64,000 nucleotides of DNA from IMG/VR virus record IMGVR_UViG_3300021376_000006; one strand, given 5' to 3'. A program made the position numbers and the translations under genes. The notes under the pieces are model-generated. The model was not told where the DNA came from, did not search any database, and saw nothing but the letters and a program-made list of their open reading frames with translations. Below, piece by piece: positions 2,987 through 46,424 of this stretch. This DNA is from a virus (Duplodnaviria; Caudoviricetes). How positions within the stretch are numbered: the first letter of the stretch is position 1; every line of letters starts with the position of its first letter.

Positions 2987-3294
2987 TTTTGTATCAATTG
3001 ATTTTGTGAAAATCTTATTAAGGCCTCGTGTTTGCCTGCCATACCTTCGCCACTGTCCTGGTCAGTGCCATGATAGGCATTGGCTACCATGCCAGCAATA
3101 CTAGTCATTTGAAATGCCAACTTCAATCTGTCTAAATGACTGTATTTCTGACTTTCCAAAAATTGATATTGTTGTTGTCTATTTTTACAATCAATTTTAT
3201 AGTGATTGAGTTCTTGATAGCTCATTCTTTCGGGGGTAGCACAAGCCACTTGAAAAAGACAGGCAGCAATCACTAGAGTTTTTTTCATTTGCAT
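2932..3294 (-). CDS. Putative lipoprotein
   Basis: MKKTLVIAACLFQVAC lipobox-like. Confidence 0.65.
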   Translation of the reverse strand: MQMKKTLVIAACLFQVACATPERMSYQELNHYKIDCKNRQQQYQFLESQKYSHLDRLKLAFQMTSIAGMVANAYHGTDQDSGEGMAGKHEALIRFSQNQLIQNCAIWDREQQIKQESEER

Positions 3295-3497
3295 TCCTTT
3301 TGTAACTGCCAGTACATTCTTCGTAAACTTTTACGAGCTTCGTAATCATCGTCGCTTAGCCGAGTCTCGGCACGAGCAATGAAAGCTTCTTGGCGCTGTT
3401 TATTGTAACAATCAGCAAACCATGTAGTGGTATCTGGCACGTGTCTGGTGGCACAGGATGTTAAAAACATCAAACCAAACAGGCAAAAATATTTCAT
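3285..3497 (-). CDS. Putative lipoprotein
   Basis: MKYFCLFGLMFLTSC lipobox. Confidence 0.65.
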   Translation of the reverse strand: MKYFCLFGLMFLTSCATRHVPDTTTWFADCYNKQRQEAFIARAETRLSDDDYEARKSLRRMYWQLQKECK

Positions 3498-3649
3498 CGT
3501 TGTTTGCGTGGAGTTACTGCAGATTTAAACACCATTATTGCAGTGGTCTCATCACAACCAGCGTTTCGTTGAATATATTTGACTGCATCCCGAGTGTTAA
3601 GTTGTAGAACGTAAACAGCTTCGTCGGCAAATCGTTGTGCTTGAGTCAT
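3494..3649 (-). CDS. Small hypothetical protein (51 aa)
   Basis: Not in ORF track; MTQAQRFADEAVYVLQLN..., AAGGAG SD, ATGA overlap with next gene. Confidence 0.7.
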   Translation of the reverse strand: MTQAQRFADEAVYVLQLNTRDAVKYIQRNAGCDETTAIMVFKSAVTPRKQR

Positions 3650-3658
3650 TGTTTCTCC

Positions 3659-4027
3659 TTACCAAGATGAATTGTAAAAAACTTTAAGTCCAGTAAAAAG
3701 CTCTGCGCGAGCTTTGCGTATAAATTCTAAATCTTGTTCGCGATAATAATCATCGCTATCACTACCAAAGAAAAAACCAGAAGTAGATGGGAGCTTGACA
3801 TTTTTAACATCCTCCTCTAAACGTTCTAGATCTTCCCATGAGAGTTCTAATTCTATACCGTTGAACATAGGATCTGCGCTAGGTTCAGTATTTCTACTGC
3901 GCCATAACTGCTCCATCCAACCATGCAGATTGGGATGTTTACGCCAGTAGGCAATTTCTCGTTGTGCTCCTGTACCCCACTCTTCGTTAGCTTTAGCAGC
4001 AGCGTAAGCGTACATATCTAAACCCAT
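3659..4027 (-). CDS. Conserved phage hypothetical protein
   Basis: MGLDMYAY...YWRKHPNLHGWM...FYNSSW, GGAG SD. Confidence 0.75.
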   Translation of the reverse strand: MGLDMYAYAAAKANEEWGTGAQREIAYWRKHPNLHGWMEQLWRSRNTEPSADPMFNGIELELSWEDLERLEEDVKNVKLPSTSGFFFGSDSDDYYREQDLEFIRKARAELFTGLKVFYNSSW

Positions 4028-4057
4028 TTACGTCTCCAAAAATTACAAAGTTAAGTT

Positions 4058-4086
4058 ATTATACCCAATAATGGTATTTTAGTCAA
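4058..4086 (-). promoter_or_regulatory. Sigma70-type early promoter
   Basis: TTGACT(4081-4086)-17-TATAAT(4058-4063). Confidence 0.8.
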
Positions 4087-4366
4087 CTCGTTCTCGTGAT
4101 TTGAGTTTGACCACAGTTAATTTAGTATTTTTACCAACCGGCGGTGGATCGTTTAGTTTATCACCAAATTCGCGTCCAACATAGTATTCGCACAAACGAT
4201 GACGGCACATGGTAGGCACATCTTCGAATCCTGGATCTAGTAAAAATTGATAGGGACTACGACCCCAAGTTGAATTTTTGAGAAAGTTAAAATATGCTCT
4301 GCGATGATCCTTGTTAGACGGATCAAATACTGTGGCGGGTCTACAATTTAACAATAATTTGTTCAC
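4079..4366 (-). CDS. Hypothetical protein
   Basis: 95 aa ORF, GTG start, promoter upstream. Confidence 0.65.
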   Translation of the reverse strand: MNKLLLNCRPATVFDPSNKDHRRAYFNFLKNSTWGRSPYQFLLDPGFEDVPTMCRHRLCEYYVGREFGDKLNDPPPVGKNTKLTVVKLKSRERVD

Positions 4367-4398
4367 TGTATATCCTAGAAAAAGTTAATAAGGTGTTT

Positions 4399-4437
4399 AT
4401 AGTAACACATAAAAAAAGCCCTGTCAACCAGGGCTTT
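4399..4437 (-). terminator. Terminator overlapping a sigma70 promoter
   Basis: Stem AGCCCTG/CAGGGCT with T-tract; TTGACA(4422-4427)-17-TACTAT(4399-4404), -35 in the hairpin. Confidence 0.7.
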
Positions 4438-4464
4438 GAATCTTGCTATTTGAGCAACTAGTGT

Positions 4465-4683
4465 TTACTTTTTAGCAACAGTTTGCTTGGGTATAAAGCT
4501 GGTTGCTGATTCAGCAACAGTTTTGGTAATATCAGTTGTCACTGCTACTACAGTTTTGGTCCATGTGGCCTGAGCATCTACCAAAGTTTCAAACCCGGAA
4601 CGAATTTCTTCGTTTGGAATATGAGAAAAAACAGCTTTGGTTTGTTTGGCCGCATTGTCTACTAGAGTTTCAACATTGTACAT
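4465..4683 (-). CDS. Phasin-like amphipathic helical protein
   Basis: 72 aa, helical ...NEEIRSGFETLVDAQATWTKT... pattern resembling phage phasin-like proteins (recalled, not searched). Confidence 0.4.
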   Translation of the reverse strand: MYNVETLVDNAAKQTKAVFSHIPNEEIRSGFETLVDAQATWTKTVVAVTTDITKTVAESATSFIPKQTVAKK

Positions 4684-4816
4684 TACTATCTCCTATAATT
4701 AATGTATGGTTACTATACTATAATTTATGCGGTGGTGCAACATAAAATATGCTCATTTAATGATTTTGTTTCACCTTTTTGTAAACTAAATATTTTTAAT
4801 TTTCAAGGAGATCCAA

Positions 4817-5200
4817 ATGGAATTAATTATTCTATCAGTAGTAGTAATTGGTGTTTTAGGTTTGTTTTTATGGCGGGATCGTAAATTTGAAGAAAATGGC
4901 TCACATCCATTGGACGGTGCCACAAAATCAAACGAACCGTGGCCGTTTCCAACAGCTCGTCCGACCGAGCTAACAACAAAACCAGATGGAATCGGACACG
5001 AAAGCGATCCTACATCAACCAACATTCTTGATGTAAACAAGGATGGAAAAGTTGATATCAAGGATGCAGTAGCAGCAGCTGAGATTGTGGTTGAAAAAAC
5101 CAAAAAAACAGCAGCTAAAACCAAAGCGGTGGCAAAAGCCACTGCGACCAAAGTAAAGACTGCTGCTAAAAAAACAGCCGCAAAAAAACCTAAAAAGTAA
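4817..5200 (+). CDS. Membrane-anchored protein with EF-hand-like loop and Lys/Ala-rich tail
   Basis: N-terminal TM helix, DVNKDGKVDIKD loop, KKTAAKK-type C-terminus; TAAATA and AAGGAG upstream. Confidence 0.7.
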   Translation: MELIILSVVVIGVLGLFLWRDRKFEENGSHPLDGATKSNEPWPFPTARPTELTTKPDGIGHESDPTSTNILDVNKDGKVDIKDAVAAAEIVVEKTKKTAAKTKAVAKATATKVKTAAKKTAAKKPKK

Positions 5201-10367: not shown

Positions 10368-10823
10368 TCAAGGTTCGTATAACCAACCCAAATTCTCCAA
10401 ACGGTGTATCCAGGTGAATATGGGCGTAGTAAACGGCAACTCCCAACGTCCGTTCCAACCCAGATATGTTGCTGATTCTATAACAGGCTTTTTGTCTGGG
10501 TAATCTCTGGGATATTTTGGACGGTAATTTCCGGTCCATTTGAATCTATCCAAACTTAAATTTTCAAATTTTACTTCATGAATTTCTATAGCCATATCTA
10601 GATTTTTTTCTAGAACGCAATCATTATAATCTTTATTATCAAATTCTATCCAAAAAACATGTGAACCGTTTTTTAAATTTTGATTAACTTTTATAACTAA
10701 GATATCCGTCAGTTCTACTGTGTCAATTGTTTGTGAATCTACTCCGTAGGTGATAACAGGTTTAGTTCGCCACCAACGCGGAACTACAGTTATTTCTACG
10801 TCAAGATTGAATTGTGTATCCAT
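10368..10823 (-). CDS. Hypothetical protein
   Basis: 151 aa, ends YLGWNGRW...WIHRLENLGWLY. Confidence 0.7.
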   Translation of the reverse strand: MDTQFNLDVEITVVPRWWRTKPVITYGVDSQTIDTVELTDILVIKVNQNLKNGSHVFWIEFDNKDYNDCVLEKNLDMAIEIHEVKFENLSLDRFKWTGNYRPKYPRDYPDKKPVIESATYLGWNGRWELPFTTPIFTWIHRLENLGWLYEP

Positions 10824-12093
10824 GTTGTAAAAAAAGTTCTTGATACTCAGGATAAATTTCTAAGGCGTTTAAATTATGTACTGTATCCCACCGCGTCATC
10901 CATGCTACTAATTCTCTTAATTTATTTGTATCAGTTTGAGCTTGATTGTCAATGAAATTAATCATGGTATCGCATTCCCTAATTAATTGTAAGCTTAGTC
11001 TTGAAGTATCTCTACCAACACTCAACGTGTTAAAATCTACAGAACTGTTTTGTTGAATAAATTCTTTTAATGTTACAAAATTTTGTCTGAATTTCTGACG
11101 CACTTCATATGGAAGCACGTCAATCGCTAGATACGATGGTTGCCGTAACGGATTGCTTTGAATACTGATGTTGAAATCAAACGCACGTTTTATAAGTTTA
11201 TGATAGGTGTTTATACTTAACAATTGCGGGACACTTCTTAAAACTAGTGAAAAGTTTTCATTTTGTAAACTGTTAAGATATTCTATATTCTTCCAGACCT
11301 GTTCTGTGTCACTACCTTGTCTGATATAGTGATTGTTAGATTCTGTCGACTCCACGCTGACTTCTATGTCAACTCTTTTAAATTTTTGTAAGTTATCTAA
11401 CAAATCGTGATTTATAACTGTGGCATTGGTTACAAAACTGAGGCTTAAATGAGTCAGTTTGTTTTTAACCAACCAATCAATAAATTCTATAAATCTTTTA
11501 TTAATAGTCGGTTCGCCGCCCATTACATGTATTCTATGCAATTTAGAGACTGATTGCACGTTTTCAAGGAATTGTTGATAACACTGGTTGTCGTTAGTCC
11601 AATTTGCTTTGTGCTGAAACGGAATTTTCCATTTGGTATAATGCGAAGCAATTTTGCTACTTGCATCGGGACCGCACATTTTGCATGCTAGATTACATTC
11701 ATTACCAAAATCAATATGCCAATCAATTGGTAACTTATCACTGTCAGATTTGAAATTTTTTTTCCATGGACTCTGGTCAAAACTTTTTTCAAATGCATGT
11801 TCTGTGAATATAGCTACTTTATAATTTTCTTTTATTCTACGACTTTGATGTCCGTATAATTCTTCATGATAACATCCAATACACTCAGGTAATGGTTCGT
11901 TACCTAGAATTCGTTCTCTAAAGTTTTGCATGGTATTGCTGTTATACCATGTGATAAGATTAGTATTTTGAATATTGTATTTTGTGCCTTGTGCTTTTTG
12001 GGATTCTGAACAACAAACACCGTAAGTGCCGTCCCAATACAAATGAGTGTTATGCCATGGCACTGCACAAAAAATTTTTTGATTGGCCATCAA
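10801..12093 (-). CDS. Radical SAM protein with N-terminal SPASM/twitch-like Cys cluster
   Basis: CNLACKMC, MGGEPT, FCAVPW...VCC...CIGCY; paralogue of 489..1586. Confidence 0.9.
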   Translation of the reverse strand: MMANQKIFCAVPWHNTHLYWDGTYGVCCSESQKAQGTKYNIQNTNLITWYNSNTMQNFRERILGNEPLPECIGCYHEELYGHQSRRIKENYKVAIFTEHAFEKSFDQSPWKKNFKSDSDKLPIDWHIDFGNECNLACKMCGPDASSKIASHYTKWKIPFQHKANWTNDNQCYQQFLENVQSVSKLHRIHVMGGEPTINKRFIEFIDWLVKNKLTHLSLSFVTNATVINHDLLDNLQKFKRVDIEVSVESTESNNHYIRQGSDTEQVWKNIEYLNSLQNENFSLVLRSVPQLLSINTYHKLIKRAFDFNISIQSNPLRQPSYLAIDVLPYEVRQKFRQNFVTLKEFIQQNSSVDFNTLSVGRDTSRLSLQLIRECDTMINFIDNQAQTDTNKLRELVAWMTRWDTVHNLNALEIYPEYQELFLQHGYTIQS

Positions 12094-15022: not shown

Positions 15023-15534
15023 ATGTGTCCGGTTATTTGTAATGTATATCTAGGTTGGAATCCCATGTTAAATGCACTGTGTGGTGCATCCCATGGCCAT
15101 ATCAAAGTAAATCCTGCAATCCAATCAGCATACCCAGTGCTTTCACATTCTGCAAAATGTCCGGGTTTACGATCTTGTAAAAATACCACTGCTCGACGTA
15201 TCCGGTATTCCTGACCTTGTAAATTGAATAATTCAATGTAGCGACGATAGGTATCAATGTGATTGGGTAAACTGCTACCTGGATCCATTCTGTAATAACA
15301 TGTGCCTATGTTCTTCCATTTGCCATAAGTTTCAAAGAAGTCAATAAATTTTTGATTCCAACTGGGCTGAGCACTACGCATGTCGCACATCCAACCACCA
15401 AATGGACCGCGGAATCCCGCATCTTCCCACTCTATTTGTGTAGCAGGATCATTGAATTTTTCTTTTATGTAATCTAATTTTGTATATTCATCATCCCAAA
15501 ATTTTGCAATGTTAAACTGTTCGTGTGTTACCAT
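15019..15534 (-). CDS. 2OG-Fe(II) dioxygenase / cupin-like protein
   Basis: PNHIDTY (HxD) and distal PHSAFN...RYTLQITG. Confidence 0.7.
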   Translation of the reverse strand: MVTHEQFNIAKFWDDEYTKLDYIKEKFNDPATQIEWEDAGFRGPFGGWMCDMRSAQPSWNQKFIDFFETYGKWKNIGTCYYRMDPGSSLPNHIDTYRRYIELFNLQGQEYRIRRAVVFLQDRKPGHFAECESTGYADWIAGFTLIWPWDAPHSAFNMGFQPRYTLQITGHI

Positions 15535-16738
15535 AATAAATTACCTTGTAATCTTTACTGGTTTTATATTTGCGCCAAGGATCAACAATTACACTGCCAG
15601 GTTCTAAGTCAACATATAGTTCTTGTTCTCGTTGTTCTCCTGTATATCCGTATGTGACATTTCTGTTGTGAGCTAAAAATGCTATTACCGGCATACCATT
15701 GAATGGAGGATCGTCGCCGGTTAAAGGATCTACATAATAAAATTTGGCTTGAATAGATTGCAAATAATGACCTATCAATAAGCTATAACTGCCATCAACG
15801 AAATCAACGTCTGGTTTATATGCTTTGCCCATAATGAATATAGGCAAGTTGTATTGCCTTTGTATTTTGGCAAGATATCTTGCAATGTTGCGTGCCTGTT
15901 TTTCTCTTGCATGCATTATGGTATTAAAAATATCATAACCAAGATTTAAATTTTCTGCCAACCAACGTAGTGCAATATTGTCTCTTGGGTGGCATGGACC
16001 TGCATCGCCCATTCCTGCTCGCATGTATTTTGGACTCATTATACGTATGGTGCTATTGGCCAATGCCTCAGTAACAACATCAACATTTATATTACCATTT
16101 GCCATAGCAACATCTTGAATCATGTTTACTAATCCAATTTTGGTACTAATAAATGTGTTATAAAATATTTTGATTGATTCTGCTTCATCCCAGGTACCGA
16201 CTATGTATCTAGGATTGTTTTGCATGATAGACTTATAAAATTCAATCAATGTCTTGGCGTCTCCTGTTTCACTTCCATCCTTGGTTCCAATAATAACCAT
16301 TTCAGGATTTATCATGTCCCACTCAACACTGCCCATGGCAATCAAGTAAGGATTATAAACAAAGCGAGCATTGGTAATACATGAGCGTAGTTCTTTTCTA
16401 ACTGTACCAGGTAATACTGTGCTAATTAACACAACTAACTGATCTGGGCTGGCCCATGCATTGATATTGTTAAGCACTTGTTTAACTGTAGTATAATCAA
16501 AATCTTTATTAGGCAAATGTGTAATTGGTTGGCTGCCATCATAGGCAGGATCATGCGGAGTTTGTACTGCCACAAATACCAAATCTTTTCCTACCACTGC
16601 ACCTCGTATAGAGTCAGATATTTTAATTTTGTTGCTGGTTTTTGGACACACATCATAACCAACTACATCGTGAACTTGTGCCATTGTTTCAGCACAAGGC
16701 ATGCCCAACTTACCAAGACCGATAAAGCCTATGTGCAT
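15512..16738 (-). CDS. ugd: UDP-glucose/GDP-mannose 6-dehydrogenase family
   Basis: GLGKLG, LISTV.PGT, YNPYL, AESIKIFYNTFISTKI, GPCHPRD, AYKPDVD. Confidence 0.9.
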   Translation of the reverse strand: MHIGFIGLGKLGMPCAETMAQVHDVVGYDVCPKTSNKIKISDSIRGAVVGKDLVFVAVQTPHDPAYDGSQPITHLPNKDFDYTTVKQVLNNINAWASPDQLVVLISTVLPGTVRKELRSCITNARFVYNPYLIAMGSVEWDMINPEMVIIGTKDGSETGDAKTLIEFYKSIMQNNPRYIVGTWDEAESIKIFYNTFISTKIGLVNMIQDVAMANGNINVDVVTEALANSTIRIMSPKYMRAGMGDAGPCHPRDNIALRWLAENLNLGYDIFNTIMHAREKQARNIARYLAKIQRQYNLPIFIMGKAYKPDVDFVDGSYSLLIGHYLQSIQAKFYYVDPLTGDDPPFNGMPVIAFLAHNRNVTYGYTGEQREQELYVDLEPGSVIVDPWRKYKTSKDYKVIYYGNTRTV

Positions 16739-16796: not shown

Positions 16797-17561
16797 TTAT
16801 TGTACGCTGGTTGCATTGATAGTATTCAAAATTAATTGTTCCATGTCATGTATACGTGTTCTGGTTGTGTTACTATTTAATACCACAAACAAGCGTTTTT
16901 GGTTGCGAATGTACACACTCATTACTAAACATCCGCCGCTGGCTCTTACATATCCAGTCTTACTTACAATTACGTTATACTTGTTAACCAAAGGATTTGT
17001 GTTATTATATTTAAATTTAATGAATTTTTTCTTTTTCTTCTTTACAAGTTCGCCTACTGCTTGATTGCTTGCATACACAATTTCTTTATATCGTTCAGCT
17101 GCCATCAACAACTTAATCAAATCTCGAGGTGTACTTACATTTCTGTTATCTAGGCCACTGCTGTCCGCGAATCTTGTATCGGTCATTCCTAGTATTTGAG
17201 CTTTATGATTCATATCAGATATACAATTATTGTATCCTCTACGATAAACTTCGCATAGCATTTTAGCCGCATAGTTATCTGAACGTATAACCGCCAAATT
17301 AATTAATTGTTCTCTATTAACAATTAGGCCGCGAAATCTCCTGTCAAGAGGTTGTTGTAAATTATCGTTAGAATCAAGAACTACCATGGCTGTCATTAAC
17401 TTGGTTATACTTGCAATAGGCTGCTGTATTTCAATATTTTCCGATTCTAATACGGTACCATTACCGTCGGCTATAAGCCAAGACTTAGCCGATATATTAG
17501 TAGAAAAAACAGGGTAGCTCACAATCATAAAGATCGCGTAAGCAAGAAAAAATCTAAACAT
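16797..17561 (-). CDS. Peptidase S11 (D-Ala-D-Ala carboxy/endopeptidase, PBP7-like)
   Basis: Signal peptide; SITK (SxxK), SDN (SxN), KTG motifs intact. Confidence 0.9.
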   Translation of the reverse strand: MFRFFLAYAIFMIVSYPVFSTNISAKSWLIADGNGTVLESENIEIQQPIASITKLMTAMVVLDSNDNLQQPLDRRFRGLIVNREQLINLAVIRSDNYAAKMLCEVYRRGYNNCISDMNHKAQILGMTDTRFADSSGLDNRNVSTPRDLIKLLMAAERYKEIVYASNQAVGELVKKKKKKFIKFKYNNTNPLVNKYNVIVSKTGYVRASGGCLVMSVYIRNQKRLFVVLNSNTTRTRIHDMEQLILNTINATSVQ

Positions 17562-21545: not shown

Positions 21546-21860
21546 TTATGTTTCTTGATGATCAAATCTGCCGCAAACTATGTCATAAAATTCGTCTAGT
21601 TCGCCGCCCCACTTGCCTTTGAGATATGGACGTAAGTCGTAGCACAGTTTTGCGTTTTTGTCTTTGTTGGCCTGTACAAATGTATTGTGTAGCTTTTTCC
21701 AGTGATCCAGTTTAACAACTTCTTCTAACGGAATTTGATCTCCGGGCACTACACAAAATGTTTCTAATATTTGTCCTTCTACATCGTGTGGTTCTAGTTC
21801 AAGAACAGTGTATCTTTCACTTAATTCTTCTGCTATTTGTCTATTAAAAATAATATCCAT
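21546..21860 (-). CDS. Conserved phage hypothetical protein
   Basis: MDIIF...YTVLELE...LKGKWGGELDEFY. Confidence 0.7.
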   Translation of the reverse strand: MDIIFNRQIAEELSERYTVLELEPHDVEGQILETFCVVPGDQIPLEEVVKLDHWKKLHNTFVQANKDKNAKLCYDLRPYLKGKWGGELDEFYDIVCGRFDHQET

Positions 21861-22396
21861 TATCGTTTTTTTACTCCTACTATTTTGTATATATGCTGTA
21901 CAGCTCTAGCCTGATAATAACAATCAATCAATGCATTGTGAGCACCGTGTCTGTTTTTTTCTCTTGGATCACCATGAACACTAAACAATGTACGGCTGTC
22001 TCTTATCTGCCAAAATTGCCACGGAGTCGGACGACCAACTTGTCTATATAGATCTTCTAGTATAACAATGTCAAAAGCAGGTCCTTGACACCAAATATTA
22101 TCTGCACCAACCAAAAAGCGATTGAGCTGATCCAACATATCATTTACACTTATGCGACCATCCATGCCCATAGCTTCTTCTCTTACTTCTTCAGTTTGTG
22201 TTCCCCACCAGGCAACTGTTTCGTCTTGAACGTGTCGGTCCATAGATAGTTGTTCGTCAACATCTGGTTTTAAGTATAGGCCTTGACCTTGATCAACATC
22301 CGACTCCCAGGGGCTAAACTTGACTGCGCCGAAAGTTAAAATAACTGACCATGGTCTTGTGCTCAGCGTTTCAAGATCCAGCATTACATCCATCAT
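21860..22396 (-). CDS. DEDD 3'-5' exonuclease (Rv2179c-like)
   Basis: VMLDLETL, WCQGPAFD, RDSRT, HNALID. Confidence 0.88.
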   Translation of the reverse strand: MMDVMLDLETLSTRPWSVILTFGAVKFSPWESDVDQGQGLYLKPDVDEQLSMDRHVQDETVAWWGTQTEEVREEAMGMDGRISVNDMLDQLNRFLVGADNIWCQGPAFDIVILEDLYRQVGRPTPWQFWQIRDSRTLFSVHGDPREKNRHGAHNALIDCYYQARAVQHIYKIVGVKKR

Positions 22397-22869
22397 TGAC
22401 TCCTGAGGGCTCTATCAGCTTCGGCTGCTGCTACACGTCTACGCAGACTACTGGAACTGAACGAATGATCGCGTTGGTTAAACACCAATTCAATTCGACG
22501 ATTGTAACATTCTTGTGCACCAGTAAAATCTTTTTCTGCGTATTCTATACCCAGTATACGCACATCAATAGGCAGGGTCAAAAGAATGTCAACTAAATCT
22601 TGCTCAGTCTGATATACAACCACTTCATCCACATAGCGACATGCCGCCAATTGAATCTGTCGCTCCACGACACTCTGTACGGGTGGATTTTTTATATCCG
22701 GACGGTCAATTGTGGGGTCGGTTTGCAGCCCGGCGATAAGATAATCGCAGTGATTCTTAGCCTCTGCCAACATTGCAATATGACCGGCGTGGCATAAATC
22801 AAAAGTCGAAAAAGTAATCCCAATCTTAAGTCCCTTATCCTTAAGTTCTCGTATTTTATTGAATATCAT
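22393..22869 (-). CDS. Cytidylyltransferase (TagD-like)
   Basis: FSTFDLCHAGH (HxGH), GLQTDP, FSSSSLR. Confidence 0.88.
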   Translation of the reverse strand: MIFNKIRELKDKGLKIGITFSTFDLCHAGHIAMLAEAKNHCDYLIAGLQTDPTIDRPDIKNPPVQSVVERQIQLAACRYVDEVVVYQTEQDLVDILLTLPIDVRILGIEYAEKDFTGAQECYNRRIELVFNQRDHSFSSSSLRRRVAAAEADRALRSQ

Positions 22870-23181
22870 TCAATTAGCTGGTTCTAATTTTACGTTGAGA
22901 GGAAAGCCGTTGTTACGAGCAAGAAGAGTTGCTTCTACACCTTTTTGTTCAGCTATTTCATAAGGTAAAGTACTAACCACGCTAGATCCTTCTTGATGAA
23001 TTTTCAAAGTTATTTCATGTGCAGTTTGCTCTGAATGATGGAAAATTGTTTTGAGAGATTCTACAACAAATTCCATAGTTGTTACATTATCGTTTAGATA
23101 TATTACATTAAACAAACTGGGTGGCTGGATGTTTGTTTTGATTTGAATCCTAGGTTTGACTACAATATCTGTTTTGCTCAT
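22870..23181 (-). CDS. clpS: ClpS adaptor
   Basis: VIYLNDNVTTMEFVV...IHQEG...YEIAEQK...FPL. Confidence 0.93.
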   Translation of the reverse strand: MSKTDIVVKPRIQIKTNIQPPSLFNVIYLNDNVTTMEFVVESLKTIFHHSEQTAHEITLKIHQEGSSVVSTLPYEIAEQKGVEATLLARNNGFPLNVKLEPAN

Positions 23182-23196: not shown

Positions 23197-23220
23197 AGTA
23201 GGGGGATGTATCCCCCTACT
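23197..23220 (-). promoter_or_regulatory. Perfect 10-bp hairpin in clpS leader
   Basis: AGTAGGGGGA-TACA-TCCCCCTACT, no U-tract; TATAAT immediately upstream on minus strand. Confidence 0.55.
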
Positions 23221-23229
23221 GTTATTATA

Positions 23230-23667
23230 CTACTTAGCGAATGTAATTGCAATCTTCTTGGGCTTTTGTTCTTCGGGAACAATATGCTCCAAACTAACTG
23301 CCAAAATACCATTAATTACTGTAGCGCCTTTAACTTCCACATTGTCAGCTAAAGTAAAATGACGAGTGAAAGTTCTTGCACTGATGCCACGGTGCAAGTA
23401 TTCGTATTCATCTTTTTGCTTTTGTTCGCCTCGAATCGTTAGAACATTTTCTTTGTATTCAATATCAAGTTCATCTTCACTGAAGCCAGCAACCGCTAGT
23501 TGGATGGCATAGTGATTTTCGTCAATTCGAACAATGTTGTGAGGCGGATAGTTGTCGGCTTTACTATTGGCAAAAGTGCGTCCTAGTTCGTTGAACAATC
23601 TATCAAAGCCTACAGCATGGCGATGAAGTGTTGGTAAATCAAAAGTGCTAATTGTATAAGTTGTCAT
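23230..23667 (-). CDS. ibpA: Small heat shock protein Hsp20 (IbpA-like)
   Basis: VGFDRLF, NYPPHNI, LAVAGF, YLHRGIS.R.F...F.LAD, NGIL. Confidence 0.95.
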   Translation of the reverse strand: MTTYTISTFDLPTLHRHAVGFDRLFNELGRTFANSKADNYPPHNIVRIDENHYAIQLAVAGFSEDELDIEYKENVLTIRGEQKQKDEYEYLHRGISARTFTRHFTLADNVEVKGATVINGILAVSLEHIVPEEQKPKKIAITFAK

Positions 23668-23740
23668 AATACGTTCTCCTTTCTATAAGCAAGTTATGAC
23701 ATATGAGTGTAGACCCCACCCGGGCATCTACACCGCATAT
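23668..23740 (-). promoter_or_regulatory. ROSE-like RNA thermometer upstream of hsp20
   Basis: 5' hairpin 23701-23740 then CUUGCUU-AUAGA-AAGGAG hairpin with bulged G over the SD. Confidence 0.7.
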
Positions 23741-23743
23741 TCT

Positions 23744-25630
23744 TTACGGCTTTTCTGTAAACTCAGCATCTACTACATTGTCATCTGCAGTGGGCTTTAC
23801 AGATTGCTCTGTAGTTGACGGCTGTTTTGCTTCGTTGATTGCATTTGAGGCAACAAACAATTCAGTCAATTTTGTTGTAATTGCTTCTCGGTCTGTGCCT
23901 GCAATGGCTTGTTCTAGTTCACTTATTTTATCGTTTATTGTCTTCGTCTGATCTTCTGCGAGTTTGCCCCCAACTTCTTTCAGATCAGTTCTTACTTGGT
24001 GGATCACTGAATCCGCTTGGTTACGAGTTTCAATGAGCTCTAGTTGCTTTCGATCCGCAGCGGCATTTGTTTCAGCATCGCGAATCATCGCCTCAATCTG
24101 TTCTTGACTTAGACCACTATCAGATTTAATGGTAATCCGATTTTCTTTGCCAGTTTTTTTGTCTCGAGCACTTACTTTAAGAATGCCATTTGCATCTACA
24201 TCTAGAACAACTTCAATTTGGGGCATACCTCTAGGTGCAGGATCGATACCTTCTAAATTAAATTCGCCTAGCAGTTTGTTGTGCTGTACTAGTTCACGTT
24301 CACCTTGATAGACTTTGATAGTAACTGCAGGCTGATTGTCTTCAGCTGTGCTGAACACTTGACTATGCTTGGTAGGAATAGTTGTATTCTTTGGTATTAG
24401 TTTGGTCATCACTCCGCCCATGGTTTCAATACCTAGGCTCAGTGGGGTAACATCAAGTAATAGCACATCTTTACGATCACCACCTAGTACAGCACCTTGT
24501 ACTGCTGCTCCGGCTGCTACTGCTTCATCTGGATTAACATCACGACGTGGTGCTCGTCCGAATAACTGTTCAACCGCTTCTTGCACTTTGGGCATACGTG
24601 TTTGGCCACCAACTAAAATAATCTCATCTATATCGCCGGCAGTTACTCCAGCATCTTGCATTGCTGTACGGCATGGTTCGATGGTACGCTGAATTAGATC
24701 ATCAACTAGACTTTCTAATTTGGCTCGAGTAATTTTAATGTTAAGATGTTTTGGACCAGTGGCATCAGCAGTGATGTAAGGTAAGTTTACATCTGTTTGT
24801 GTGTTGTTGGACAACTCAATCTTGGTACGCTCGGCAGCTTCTTTTAGTCGCTGTAGCGCCATTACGTCTCGGCCGAGATTAACTCCAGATTCCTTCTTAA
24901 ATTCAGTAATAAGGTAATCCATAATGCGTTGATCAAAATCTTCGCCTCCTAGGAATGTATCCCCATTGGTGCTAAGTACTTCGAATTGTTTATCACCATC
25001 CACATCAGCGATGTCGATAATAGATATATCAAAGGTACCGCCACCAAGATCATACACAGCAATTTTACGGTCTTTTTTGTCACTCTTGTCTGCTCCATAT
25101 GCCAGGGCTGCTGCCGTTGGCTCGTTGATTATACGTAATACCTCAAGTCCAGCAATAGCACCCGCATCTTTGGTGGCCTGACGCTGGCTATCATTGAAAT
25201 ATGCAGGGACTGTAATTACTGCTCGTGTTACTTCGTGCCCAAGATAGTCTTCAGCGGTCTTTTTCATCTTGCGTAGCACTTCAGCTGAGATTTGCGGAGG
25301 CGCCAGTTCTTGGCCGTTGGCCTGTACCCAAGCATCACCGTTCTTGCTCTCCATGATTTCATAGGGCATGAGATTGATGTCTTTTTGTACAGCCTGCTCC
25401 ATGAACTTGCGTCCGATCAGTCGCTTGGCAGCATAGATAGTGTTCTTGGGATTGGTTACAGCCTGACGTTTGGCGCCAGCGCCTACCAGAACTTCGTCTG
25501 AGGTATAGGCCACAATGCTGGGCGTAGTACGTGCGCCTTCTGAATTTTCAATTATTTTAGGGATTCCGTTTTCGACAACTGCTACGCAGCTATTGGTGGT
25601 ACCAAGATCAATACCAATGATAGTACTCAT
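23744..25630 (-). CDS. dnaK: Chaperone DnaK (full length)
   Basis: [38 protein letters not shown]-terminal VVDAEF. Confidence 0.98.
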
Positions 25631-25694
25631 TTATTTTTCTCCTTAATTAAGCAAGTATTTTGTGGGCCCGAAGCACCCTACACAATTATTTATA
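25631..25694 (-). promoter_or_regulatory. T4-type late promoter plus ROSE-like leader of dnaK
   Basis: TATAAATA at 25687-25694, cUUCGg hairpin, then CUUGCUU-AAUU-AAGGAG. Confidence 0.75.
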
Positions 25695-36220: not shown

Positions 36221-38524
36221 CTAGATTACGCAACTATCACAGTCTTCTTGACTTGTATATTCTTGTTCTTCAACTTGTCGAAATTCAACTAGTTTGTCTA
36301 TGTTTACTTCACCTTGTCCATCAAATGTATTAAAATAATATAGTTGTTTTAATCCATATTTGTAACACATTAATAAATGCTGTAGCATTTCGCTCATAGG
36401 AATCTTCTCGTCGTCGTAGTGTTGTGGATTATAACTGGTGTTTACGCTTATTCCTTGATCAATATACTTTTGCAATACCGCACAAATTTTGAGATAACCT
36501 TCGGGACTGATCTGATCCCAAAGTAACTCATACTTGTTTTTTAATCTACGATATTCAGGAACCACTTGCCTTAACGCACCGTGTTTACTTTGCTTCACGG
36601 ATACACATGATCGTGGTGGCTCTATACCATTAGTGGCATTTGAAATTTGTGCAGATGTTTCTGCAGGCATTAGTGCCATTAGTGTAGCGTTACGCTGACC
36701 TGTACGCTGAATCTGTTCGCGTAGCGATTGCCATGGCATCCGTTCTGTATATGGAACTAATTCATCTACCTCGCGCTTACGTGTATCAATTGGTAATACC
36801 CCTTTTGCACTCTTTAGATCTTGCCAACGAGTACAAGCACCTTGCTCTTCAGCGAGATCTGCAGAAGTCTTGATCAAATAATAAGACCAAGCTTCTGCAT
36901 ACTCGTCAACCAAGGCCAATGCCTTAGGATCACTATAACTGACATCATTTTTGGCCAAGAAGTAGGCAAAATTGATAATACCAATGCCCAAGGGTCTAAA
37001 TTCTTCCGTAGCCAATTGTGCTGCACGAATTGGATAGTTTTGATAACTTAATAAAGCATCCAATCCTCTTACCGCCAACCTACACATCTTCTCGAAGTCA
37101 TGTGGGCTTTTTACATTGCCCCAATTGATCGCTGATAGAGTACACAGGGCGATCCTACCATCCTCGTCGTTGACGTCTCGTAACGGTACAGTTGGTAAAT
37201 CTATTTCCGCGCAAAGATTACTCATCTTGATGGGTGCCACAGCTTCGTCAAACGGCGAGTGGGTATTGGCATGATCAACATTCTGCAAATATATTCTTCC
37301 CGTATCCTTGCGTTCCTGCATGAATCTACTAAACAAATCACTAGCCTTGAAAGTTTTCTTTCTCAGCTTGGTATTACGCTCTGCTCGCTCATAAAGCTCT
37401 TTGAATCGATCCTGATCGTTGAAAAAAGCAGAGTACAGCTCAGGTACATCATTGGGACTAAAACAGGTAATGTCGCCGCCTGTAATTAGTCTTTCATACA
37501 TCAACTTGTTAAATTGCACGCCGTAATCCATATGGCGCACACGGTTATCTTCTGTGCCTTTGTTGTTCTTTAATACAATCAGGTCCTCGATCTCAAGGTG
37601 CCAGATTGGGTAGTACAGTGTAGCGGCGCCATTGCGTACACCCCCTTGGCTACAACTCCGCGTTGCGCTTTGGAACAACTTGTAAAAAGGTATAACCCCG
37701 GTGTGGTAAGCATCTCCGTTTCGTATTGGGCTGCCAAGTGCTCGTATTCGACCTGCTCCAATTCCAATTCCGGCTTTTTGGCTGACGTACTTGACAATAC
37801 TGCTAGTAGTGGCATTGATACTGTCAAGACTGTCATCTGTTTCAATAAGCACACAGCTAGAGAATTGCTTTTGCGGTGTGCGAACACCGGCCATGACAGG
37901 AGTAGGCAAACTGATATCATGTAAACTGATAGCATCGTAGTAGTCCTTGATCCATTGTAATCGTGTTTCTTGGGGATACGTTTGAAACAGTGTAGCTGCT
38001 ATCAGTATATATGCCACTTGTGGAGTTTCGTATATTTCGTTGGTAACTCTATTTTGTACTAGATACTTGCCGCGCCATTGCTCCATGGCCACATAAGTAA
38101 AATGTTTATCTCTTTCATGGTGAACAAAACTGTTCAGACGATCCCATTCGCTAGCAGTATATGCGTCTATTAGACCTTGATCATAAAAATCCGATTCCAC
38201 ATTTTGCTGTACCAATTTAATCAACGGCCACGGACTGTAATCACCATATACCTGTTTGCGTAAATGATAATTAATTAGTCTTCCTGCTACATATTGATAA
38301 TTTGGAGTTTCTTCGCTTATAAGATCAGCAGCAGATTTAATAAGTGTTTCTTGGATATCTGCTGTTTTTATTCCGTTATAAAACTGTATGTGGCTTTTTA
38401 TCTCTACTTCGCTTGCGCTTACACCAGTGATTCCTTCGGTTGCCCAAAATACAACTCGGTGTAGTTTTTCTAAATCTAGTAATTCTTTACGTCCGTCTCT
38501 TTTAGTAACTTGAATTTGTGTCAT
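36221..38524 (-). CDS. nrdA: Ribonucleotide reductase class Ia alpha subunit
   Basis: ATP cone VTKRDG, QFSSCVL, SNLCAEI, C-terminal DCDSCVI. Confidence 0.97.
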
Positions 38525-45840: not shown

Positions 45841-45896
45841 TTTATTTCTCCTTAAATGTTTGCGTATTACCGCATAATAATATTTATGGCAGTAAT

Positions 45897-46379: not shown

Positions 46380-46424
46380 TTATTTCTCCTTAATTATTTG
46401 CGTTACCGCATGCTAATATTTATA
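46380..46424 (-). promoter_or_regulatory. Late promoter, GNRA leader hairpin and SD
   Basis: TATAAATA 46417-46424, TGCG-GTAA-CGCA, TAAGGAGAAATAAATG; near-identical element at 45841-45887. Confidence 0.8.

Follow-up and report, generated by a model that had tools for sequence, protein, structure and literature searches.

Putative ROSE_3-type RNA thermometer leaders on the dnaK and hsp20 genes of a lake-water phage

A 64-kb stretch of phage DNA (IMG/VR record IMGVR_UViG_3300021376_000006, Caudoviricetes) encodes DnaK and a small heat-shock protein (sHSP), and raises the question of how a phage controls such genes. The whole stretch analyzed is called the window here. Among the sequencing runs listed for it, all are lake-water DNA metagenomes and none is an RNA run, and no close relative of the phage is present among INPHARED phage genomes, which give distant dnaK matches only. 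ROSE thermometers are defined by pairing of U(U/C)GCU with the Shine-Dalgarno sequence (SD) around a bulged G, and belong to sHSP genes of alpha- and gammaproteobacteria; a few ROSE-like elements have been reported on Pseudomonas virulence genes. An original prediction placed ROSE-type thermometers in front of both phage genes. The two-hairpin leaders, their coordinates and the pairing of CUUGCUU with AAGGAG around a bulged G were confirmed from the letters. The reading favored here, with modest confidence, is that both leaders are a phage branch of ROSE_3-type translational RNA thermometers. A thermometer function is suggested by family membership, specificity to chaperone genes and sequence conservation. 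The chaperone genes and leaders all lie on the minus strand, as follows.

23744-25630, minus strand: dnaK, encoding an HSP70 of 628 amino acids (aa) (Pfam HSP70, E value 2e-257)
23230-23667, minus strand: hsp20, encoding an IbpA-like small heat-shock protein of 145 aa (Pfam HSP20, E value 5e-22)
25628-25694, minus strand: dnaK leader as a whole
25687-25694, minus strand: TATAAATA, a T4-type late-promoter-like box, 3-4 nucleotides (nt) 5' of dnaK hairpin 1
25661-25683, minus strand: dnaK hairpin 1, with a U.G wobble, a bulged G (25674) and a C:G pair closing a UUCG loop (by folding)
25639-25655, minus strand: dnaK hairpin 2, with anti-SD CUUGCUU (25655-25649, bulged G 25652), AAUU loop and SD AAGGAG (25644-25639)
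23665-23740, minus strand: hsp20 leader as a whole
23701-23740, minus strand: hsp20 hairpin 1, long, with the same module of U.G, bulged G (23725) and C:G (by folding and alignment to model R1, described below)
23676-23693, minus strand: hsp20 hairpin 2, with anti-SD CUUGCUU (23693-23687, bulged G 23690), AUAGA loop and SD AAGGAG (23681-23676)
23663-23700, minus strand: hsp20 outer helix, GUCAUAA (23700-23694) with UUAUGAC (23669-23663), which encloses hairpin 2 and pairs the AUG

In dnaK hairpin 1, GGGU-G-C closes the cUUCGg loop, and an A-rich linker leads to hairpin 2. The strands of dnaK hairpin 2 are ACUUGCUU (25656-25649) and AAGGAGAA (25644-25637) around the AAUU loop, and the ATG (25630-25628) follows six nt on. 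The hsp20 hairpin 1 begins 4 nt past the dnaK stop codon and has a folding z-score of -3.55 against shuffles. The same two strands, ACUUGCUU (23694-23687) and AAGGAGAA (23681-23674), form hsp20 hairpin 2 around AUAGA, again with the ATG (23667-23665) six nt on. Pairing in both leaders runs C:G, U:A, U.G, bulged G, C:G, U:A, U:A. The AUG-covering outer helix of the hsp20 leader is a detail beyond the original prediction. It is present in the minimum-energy structure at 10-37°C and is confined to the window's clade, all members of which keep GTCATA; it is without covariation because its 3' side is coding. The hsp20 hairpin 1 was also considered as a dnaK terminator and rejected, as it has no U-tract and was not flagged as an intrinsic terminator.

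Relatives were drawn from IMG/VR contigs encoding a related DnaK, of which there are at least 588; the best 80 were used (DnaK 73-90% identical). Their contigs reach 383 kb and include two CheckV-complete genomes of 383 kb and 364 kb. Covariance model R1 rests on 13 hsp20 leaders, all from distant phages that share 40-50% Hsp20 identity with the window. A model-based structure alignment of 106 distinct leaders replaced MAFFT alignments A1 and A2, which were dropped because the SD or hairpin 1 was misplaced in them.

The leader is specific to chaperone genes. CTTGCTT-N2-12-AAGGAG has 2 exact matches in 64 kb, both in the chaperone leaders, against 0.01 expected from shuffles. R1 run over the whole window with filters off returned only the two leaders, at 47.1 bits (E value 4e-11) and 30.9 bits (E value 1e-6); the next-best site scored 10.7 bits. 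The broader pattern CT(T/C)(G/A)CTT-N2-9-AAGGAG was applied to both strands of the 80 loci and the window and gave 154 matches: 80 at dnaK, 68 at hsp20, 5 at groES (a 95-aa GroES), 1 at a contig end and none before any other gene. The complete 383-kb and 364-kb genomes hold two matches each, by pattern and by R1, and none to a reversed-pattern control. Over 575 kb, R1 at an E value of 0.01 or below found 108 leaders, all in front of dnaK, hsp20, groES or the 88-aa open reading frame described below. Other window genes with a similar box, a 5' hairpin and the same SD served as internal controls, and in these the anti-SD is absent. At 46417-46424 and 45881-45888 (both minus strand), (T/C)ATAAATA precedes a small GCGGUAA(C/U)(A)CGC 5' hairpin and the SD AAGGAGAA, with no anti-SD.

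A third copy of the leader was observed in a 236-kb contig (L085:1490-1555, minus strand; G005:C1:205980-206045; R1 41.6 bits). It has a CATAAATA box, the hairpin 1 module and CUCGCUU...AAGGAG, and precedes an 88-aa open reading frame (ORF) that starts MEFQKIDFAKLF. This ORF may be a member of the phage chaperone set not yet recognized.

Family membership was assessed with Rfam models and R1. In relatives, Rfam ROSE_3 (RF02523, gathering cut-off 43 bits) gave hsp20 leaders 38.6-38.9 bits and one dnaK leader 32.4 bits. In 41 sampled Pseudomonadaceae genomes it gave 25 matches of 32-77 bits, 5 of them below 43; these 25 formed the bacterial comparison set, and R1 aligns all of them over their full length. 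The sole R1 match in the 4-Mb Pseudomonas anguilliseptica genome (36.1 bits, E value 3e-6) is a ROSE_3 element before an sHSP gene, which scores 61 bits with Rfam ROSE_3. The dnaK hairpin 1 aligns with hairpin I of both models. The N-terminal GFDRLF of the phage Hsp20 also occurs in a Pseudomonas IbpA encoded behind an above-cut-off ROSE_3 match. No match to the leaders was obtained with the Rfam ROSE and ROSE_2 models. Because the models match reciprocally and the hairpin 1 cores are near-identical, the leaders were filed as a ROSE_3-type phage branch; by sequence they are closest to this short two-hairpin family, with Rfam scores that fall short of the formal cut-off.

The Pseudomonas ibpA ROSE_3 element (RF02523; PMC3669281) likewise has two hairpins, with U.G, a bulged G and C:G in a GC-rich hairpin I whose core is near-identical to that of the phage (GGAUGCCG..CGGGUCC versus GGGUGCCG..CGGGCCC). 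It also pairs U(U/C)GCU with the SD around a bulged G, places the AUG a few nt on and precedes an IbpA-type sHSP gene. The window's leaders differ in being phage-encoded, in standing also on dnaK (and on groES in relatives) and in lying behind phage-type rather than sigma-32 promoters. The top of the phage hairpin 2 is U:A/U:A, not G:C/A:U, and a variant with a bulged A exists. Classical ROSE elements (RF00435; ROSE_2, RF01832, on E. coli ibpA) share the U(U/C)GCU anti-SD and the bulged G opposite the SD but have 3-4 hairpins and a longer thermosensing stem. The AUG is paired in hairpin IV of ROSE1, as in the window's hsp20 leader.

Hairpin 1 is supported by covariation. Across the 106 distinct leaders, compensatory changes occur at 8 of 9 pairs, with pairing kept in 96.5% of cells; none of 500 shuffles reached the observed values, which collapsed when the partner was slid by 1-3 columns. 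In hairpin 2, five pairs are fixed within phages, one changes from U.G to C:G and the bulge is G or A, with pairing always kept; the fixed SD leaves hairpin 2 no room to covary within phages. RNAalifold nevertheless predicted hairpin 2 from the alignment unaided. When the 25 bacterial members were added, its apical pair was U:A in 57, G:C in 19 and unpaired in 0, with U:A the phage form and G:C the Pseudomonas form, and one Pseudomonas leader with a GGGAG SD has a compensating U-to-C change that gives C:G. The flanking pair at -1/+1 is U:A in 96 of 132 leaders; positions -2 to -4 show no covariation, so the helix is not longer in general. These alignments were fitted to the model and therefore lean towards it.

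The anti-SD in relatives reads CUUGCUU in 90 leaders, CUCGCUU in 4, CUUACUU in 37 and CUCACUU in 1. The strict conservation of UUGCU asked of homologous leaders was therefore not found, as about 29% have UUACU or UCACU; the pairing is fully kept in these, with a bulged A. The ROSE signature of a U(U/C)GCU anti-SD, a bulged purine and a stabilizing 5' hairpin holds, and both leaders belong to one conserved RNA family.

Promoters vary around this family. The box of a T4-type late promoter lies about 6-8 nt 5' of the transcript start and is read by a gp55-type sigma factor. Nearly every related dnaK leader has (G/T)ATAAATA a few nt 5' of its first hairpin, and NATAAATA occurs in the window 15 times on the coding strand versus 3 on the other, mostly in intergenic spacers. 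From its sequence, the TATAAATA box is a putative T4-type late promoter; a PHROGs scan of 20 window ORFs turned up no gp55-like protein. For hsp20, no separate promoter-like site was found in the window. Nothing but the hsp20 leader lies in the 76 nt beyond the dnaK stop codon, so dnaK and hsp20 are probably co-transcribed. Relatives' leaders sit behind late-type, sigma-70-like or no promoters. In relative L039, TTGACA-N17-TATAAT precedes the hsp20 leader (about 3975-4010), and a sigma-70 consensus is likewise upstream in L061, L035, L069 and L021. In relatives with a sigma-70-type hsp20 promoter, dnaK keeps the ATAAATA box, and the two genes may be expressed at different stages of infection there. 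The distance from the leader to the SD and start codon is fixed, and the distance to promoters is variable. The leader is constant while promoters vary, which argues for a post-transcriptional role. The unit of late promoter plus thermometer first proposed needs correcting: hsp20 has no late promoter of its own, relatives' promoters vary and the RNA leader is the constant part.

Predicted nearest-neighbor energies for hairpin 2 are as follows.

25639-25655, minus strand: dnaK hairpin 2, -2.0 kcal/mol at 10°C and +1.2 kcal/mol at 37°C
23676-23693, minus strand: hsp20 hairpin 2, -2.0 kcal/mol at 10°C and +1.1 kcal/mol at 37°C
Bulged G deleted, 37°C: -2.6 kcal/mol (dnaK) and -2.7 kcal/mol (hsp20)
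Pseudomonas hairpin II (above the Rfam cut-off): -9.0 kcal/mol at 10°C and -4.7 kcal/mol at 37°C

The predicted midpoint of hairpin 2 in the window, where its energy is about 0 kcal/mol, lies near 27°C; the family median midpoint is near 37°C. Folding over a range of temperatures was a check proposed with the original prediction. When the dnaK leader was folded from after the promoter box, hairpin 2 was in the minimum-energy fold at 10°C and had dropped out of it at 25°C. A hairpin 2 this weak and AU-rich may switch somewhere below about 30°C, as would suit lake water.

Several results weigh against a thermometer. The assignment by Rfam models extends to a full-length ROSE_3 match on the window's dnaK leader, but at 21.4 bits (E value 0.32) this is below the 43-bit cut-off, and the hsp20 leader gave no match at E values up to 10. 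The covariation looked for was seen in hairpin 1 and not in hairpin 2, which is invariant within phages; conservation of CUU(G/A)CUU could equally reflect a sequence-specific binder. The phage hairpin 2, topped by U:A/U:A instead of G:C/A:U, falls short of a Pseudomonas hairpin II by about 6 kcal/mol; it has no upper G:C clamp, a feature found important in the Pseudomonas elements (Krajewski et al. 2013, PMC3669281). The dnaK SD is predicted to be partly occluded, with 0.28-0.5 unpaired between 0 and 37°C. In a partition-function comparison of 75-nt fragments, SD accessibility did not differ between 131 chaperone leaders and 74 AGGAG control leaders at 5-25°C, and the chaperone leaders were more open than controls at 37°C and above. 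This comparison was not counted as support, since its fragments had a fixed length rather than mapped 5' ends and ROSE folds are poorly calibrated in the energy model. By nearest-neighbor prediction a Pseudomonas hairpin II was still closed at 50°C, whereas P. putida and P. aeruginosa elements of ROSE_3 type melt between 25 and 42°C experimentally (PMC3669281); the model is therefore uncalibrated for the ROSE_3 fold. Lastly, a concerted G-to-A change has affected hairpins 1 and 2 of every leader in some phages, which a purely cis-acting thermometer does not obviously require.

This change concerns a module shared by both hairpins, namely Y (in U.G or C:G), a bulged purine and then C:G, opposite GG. 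Each resolved leader (124 of 124) has the same bulged purine in its two hairpins, and no phage mixes G and A types across its dnaK, hsp20 and groES leaders. An independent IMG/VR pattern scan gave 22 further A-type leaders, all 22 concordant. A-type phages have U-A-C in hairpin 1 and CUUACUU in hairpin 2 of every leader (L019, L025, L029, L031, L034, L036-L038, L042-L044, L051, L058, L062-L064, L070 and L076). On the DnaK tree the A type forms a clade of 18 plus L076 elsewhere, with at least 2 changes, and L029 is nearest to G-type phages; the sequences suggest 2-3 independent origins. Concordance could result from a trans-acting reader, from gene conversion between leaders or from joint tuning of the modules.

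The main rival, a minority possibility, is that the same RNA is a regulon-wide operator for a trans-acting reader and not a self-sufficient thermometer. The reader would be an RNA-binding protein of phage or host that recognizes the Y-R-C/G-G bulge module and stabilizes or opens hairpin 2; unfolded proteins or the chaperones might titrate it. The occurrence of one module in both hairpins, its G/G or A/A concordance through at least 2 changes on the DnaK tree, and a hairpin 2 predicted to be too weak alone for tight repression are consistent with such a reader. No candidate protein has been found so far, the statistics are thin because there were only 2-3 independent switches, and gene conversion between similar leaders in one genome could homogenize them. 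Concordance is also not a family-wide rule, since two Pseudomonadaceae leaders have a bulged U in hairpin 1 and G in hairpin 2, and the Pseudomonas elements need no specific factor to function in E. coli or in vitro (PMC3669281). The fuller version of this proposal is slightly more doubtful: the leader would be the operator of a phage-autonomous chaperone regulon, and the concerted G-to-A changes would record co-evolution of the RNA, with its four to six modules per genome, and the trans-acting factor that reads them.

It is unlikely, and less likely than either form of a reader, that the leaders merely set constitutive expression, with hairpin 1 protecting the mRNA 5' end, a weak SD hairpin damping translation and no physiological response to temperature. 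Hairpin 1 of Pseudomonas ibpA is thought to stabilize the mRNA (PMC3669281), and other genes of the phage have 5' hairpins right after promoter-like boxes. The marginal hairpin 2 in nearest-neighbor terms, and chaperone leaders no more occluded than controls at 5-25°C, also fit this explanation. It leaves unexplained the invariant bulged anti-SD across Hsp20 proteins only 40-50% identical and the restriction to heat-shock genes in whole genomes of 364-383 kb, and the nearest characterized relatives are working thermometers. An operator that acts at the DNA level, as CIRCE/HrcA and HAIR/HspR do, is disfavored and very improbable, as is a chance resemblance: CIRCE and HAIR are imperfect inverted repeats adjoining heat-shock genes, as is the case here, but hairpin 1 stems covary with pairing kept (G.U included), which points to RNA, the distance is fixed to the SD and start codon and variable to promoters, and chance is excluded by the shuffles and the genome-wide specificity.

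The putative thermometers differ from known phage and bacterial systems. The lambda cIII mRNA is a phage RNA thermometer. A fourU thermometer in the SPbeta blyA mRNA provides temperature-sensitive translation control of a phage gene (PMC10586365). These two have unrelated folds (an alternative-structure switch and a fourU) and act on lysis-lysogeny or lysis genes, with no chaperone set. The bacterial sigma-32 regulon, in which dnaK, groESL and ibpA are co-controlled and the rpoH mRNA is a thermometer, coordinates the same set of chaperone genes. Its coordination is transcriptional, via one sigma factor, whereas here it is proposed to occur at each mRNA by its own putative sensor.

The original prediction knew of no ROSE element on dnaK, and none came to light in the bacteria and the literature searched. 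The 80 closest bacterial DnaK proteins are 66-72% identical and mostly from Burkholderiales (Limnohabitans, Rubrivivax, Polynucleobacter); the corresponding dnaK genes lie behind sigma-32-type promoters (CTTGAAA...CCCCAT-like) and have no anti-SD. R1 gave no matches in 151 Burkholderiales genomes, a result that holds for those searched, which are a fraction of the candidates; ROSE_3 gave none in the Limnohabitans and Polynucleobacter genomes searched. In 151 Pseudomonadota genomes R1 found four leaders, all four before IbpA-type sHSP genes. In the literature searched, no paper was found on ROSE-like leaders of phage chaperone genes or on a ROSE-type leader of dnaK; a 'moraphage' paper concerns another lineage and makes no mention of thermometers (PMC12619734). 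The nearest bacterial dnaK genes are without the leader and sampled bacterial leaders stand only on sHSP genes, so its presence on dnaK and groES seems to have arisen in phages. What is new is a ROSE_3-type leader that is phage-borne, stands on dnaK (and on groES in relatives), is weaker than its bacterial kin and shows a G/A bulge dimorphism.

The leader likely was captured with an ibpA-type hsp20 from a proteobacterium and then copied within phages to dnaK, and to groES in relatives. One of the four Pseudomonadota leaders, in a 1.9-Mb bacterial genome (L176:1501-1562; G304:C1:353545-353606), has the phage-like CUUGCUU-AUUA-AAGGAG with an AU-rich hairpin 2. It lies before an IbpA-type gene and behind a sigma-32-like -10 box. 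This bacterium is possibly of the donor or host lineage.

Directly 3' of hsp20 are genes for a ClpS adaptor homolog, a cytidylyltransferase-like protein and an Rv2179c-like 3'-5' exoribonuclease, none of which has the leader. The hsp20-clpS gap contains a perfect 10-bp palindromic hairpin (6 G:C pairs, no coding-strand U-tract) that could be an mRNA 3'-end stabilizer or processing site. Auxiliary genes are found elsewhere in the window. In relative L014, at least 11 tRNA genes flank dnaK (211-564 and 3132-4823). The window features are listed below.

22870-23181, minus strand: ClpS adaptor homolog
22393-22869, minus strand: cytidylyltransferase-like protein
21860-22396, minus strand: Rv2179c-like 3'-5' exoribonuclease
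23197-23220: palindromic hairpin in the hsp20-clpS gap
10801-12093, minus strand: radical-SAM protein
15512-16738, minus strand: UDP-glucose dehydrogenase
16797-17561, minus strand: D-Ala-D-Ala carboxypeptidase (Peptidase_S11)
36221-38524, minus strand: class I ribonucleotide reductase large subunit

As ROSE_3-type thermometers, the leaders would act as follows. At low temperature, hairpin 2 would limit 30S binding, together with the AUG-covering outer helix in hsp20. On warming, hairpin 2 would melt and more DnaK and Hsp20 would be translated. Phage chaperone synthesis would then respond to temperature after transcription and independently of host sigma-32. This suggests that phages can control chaperone synthesis at translation without the host heat-shock sigma factor. 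If the leaders are temperature-responsive, these large phages would have a self-contained heat-shock regulon that works after transcription, does without both sigma-32 and HrcA and may be tuned to low lake temperatures. Such a regulon would be a new viral way to time chaperone supply for virion assembly, and RNA biophysics and synthetic biology would gain from its leaders a natural set of weak thermometers working at low temperature. The leader family is spread over a very large phage group, with at least 588 IMG/VR contigs encoding a related DnaK.

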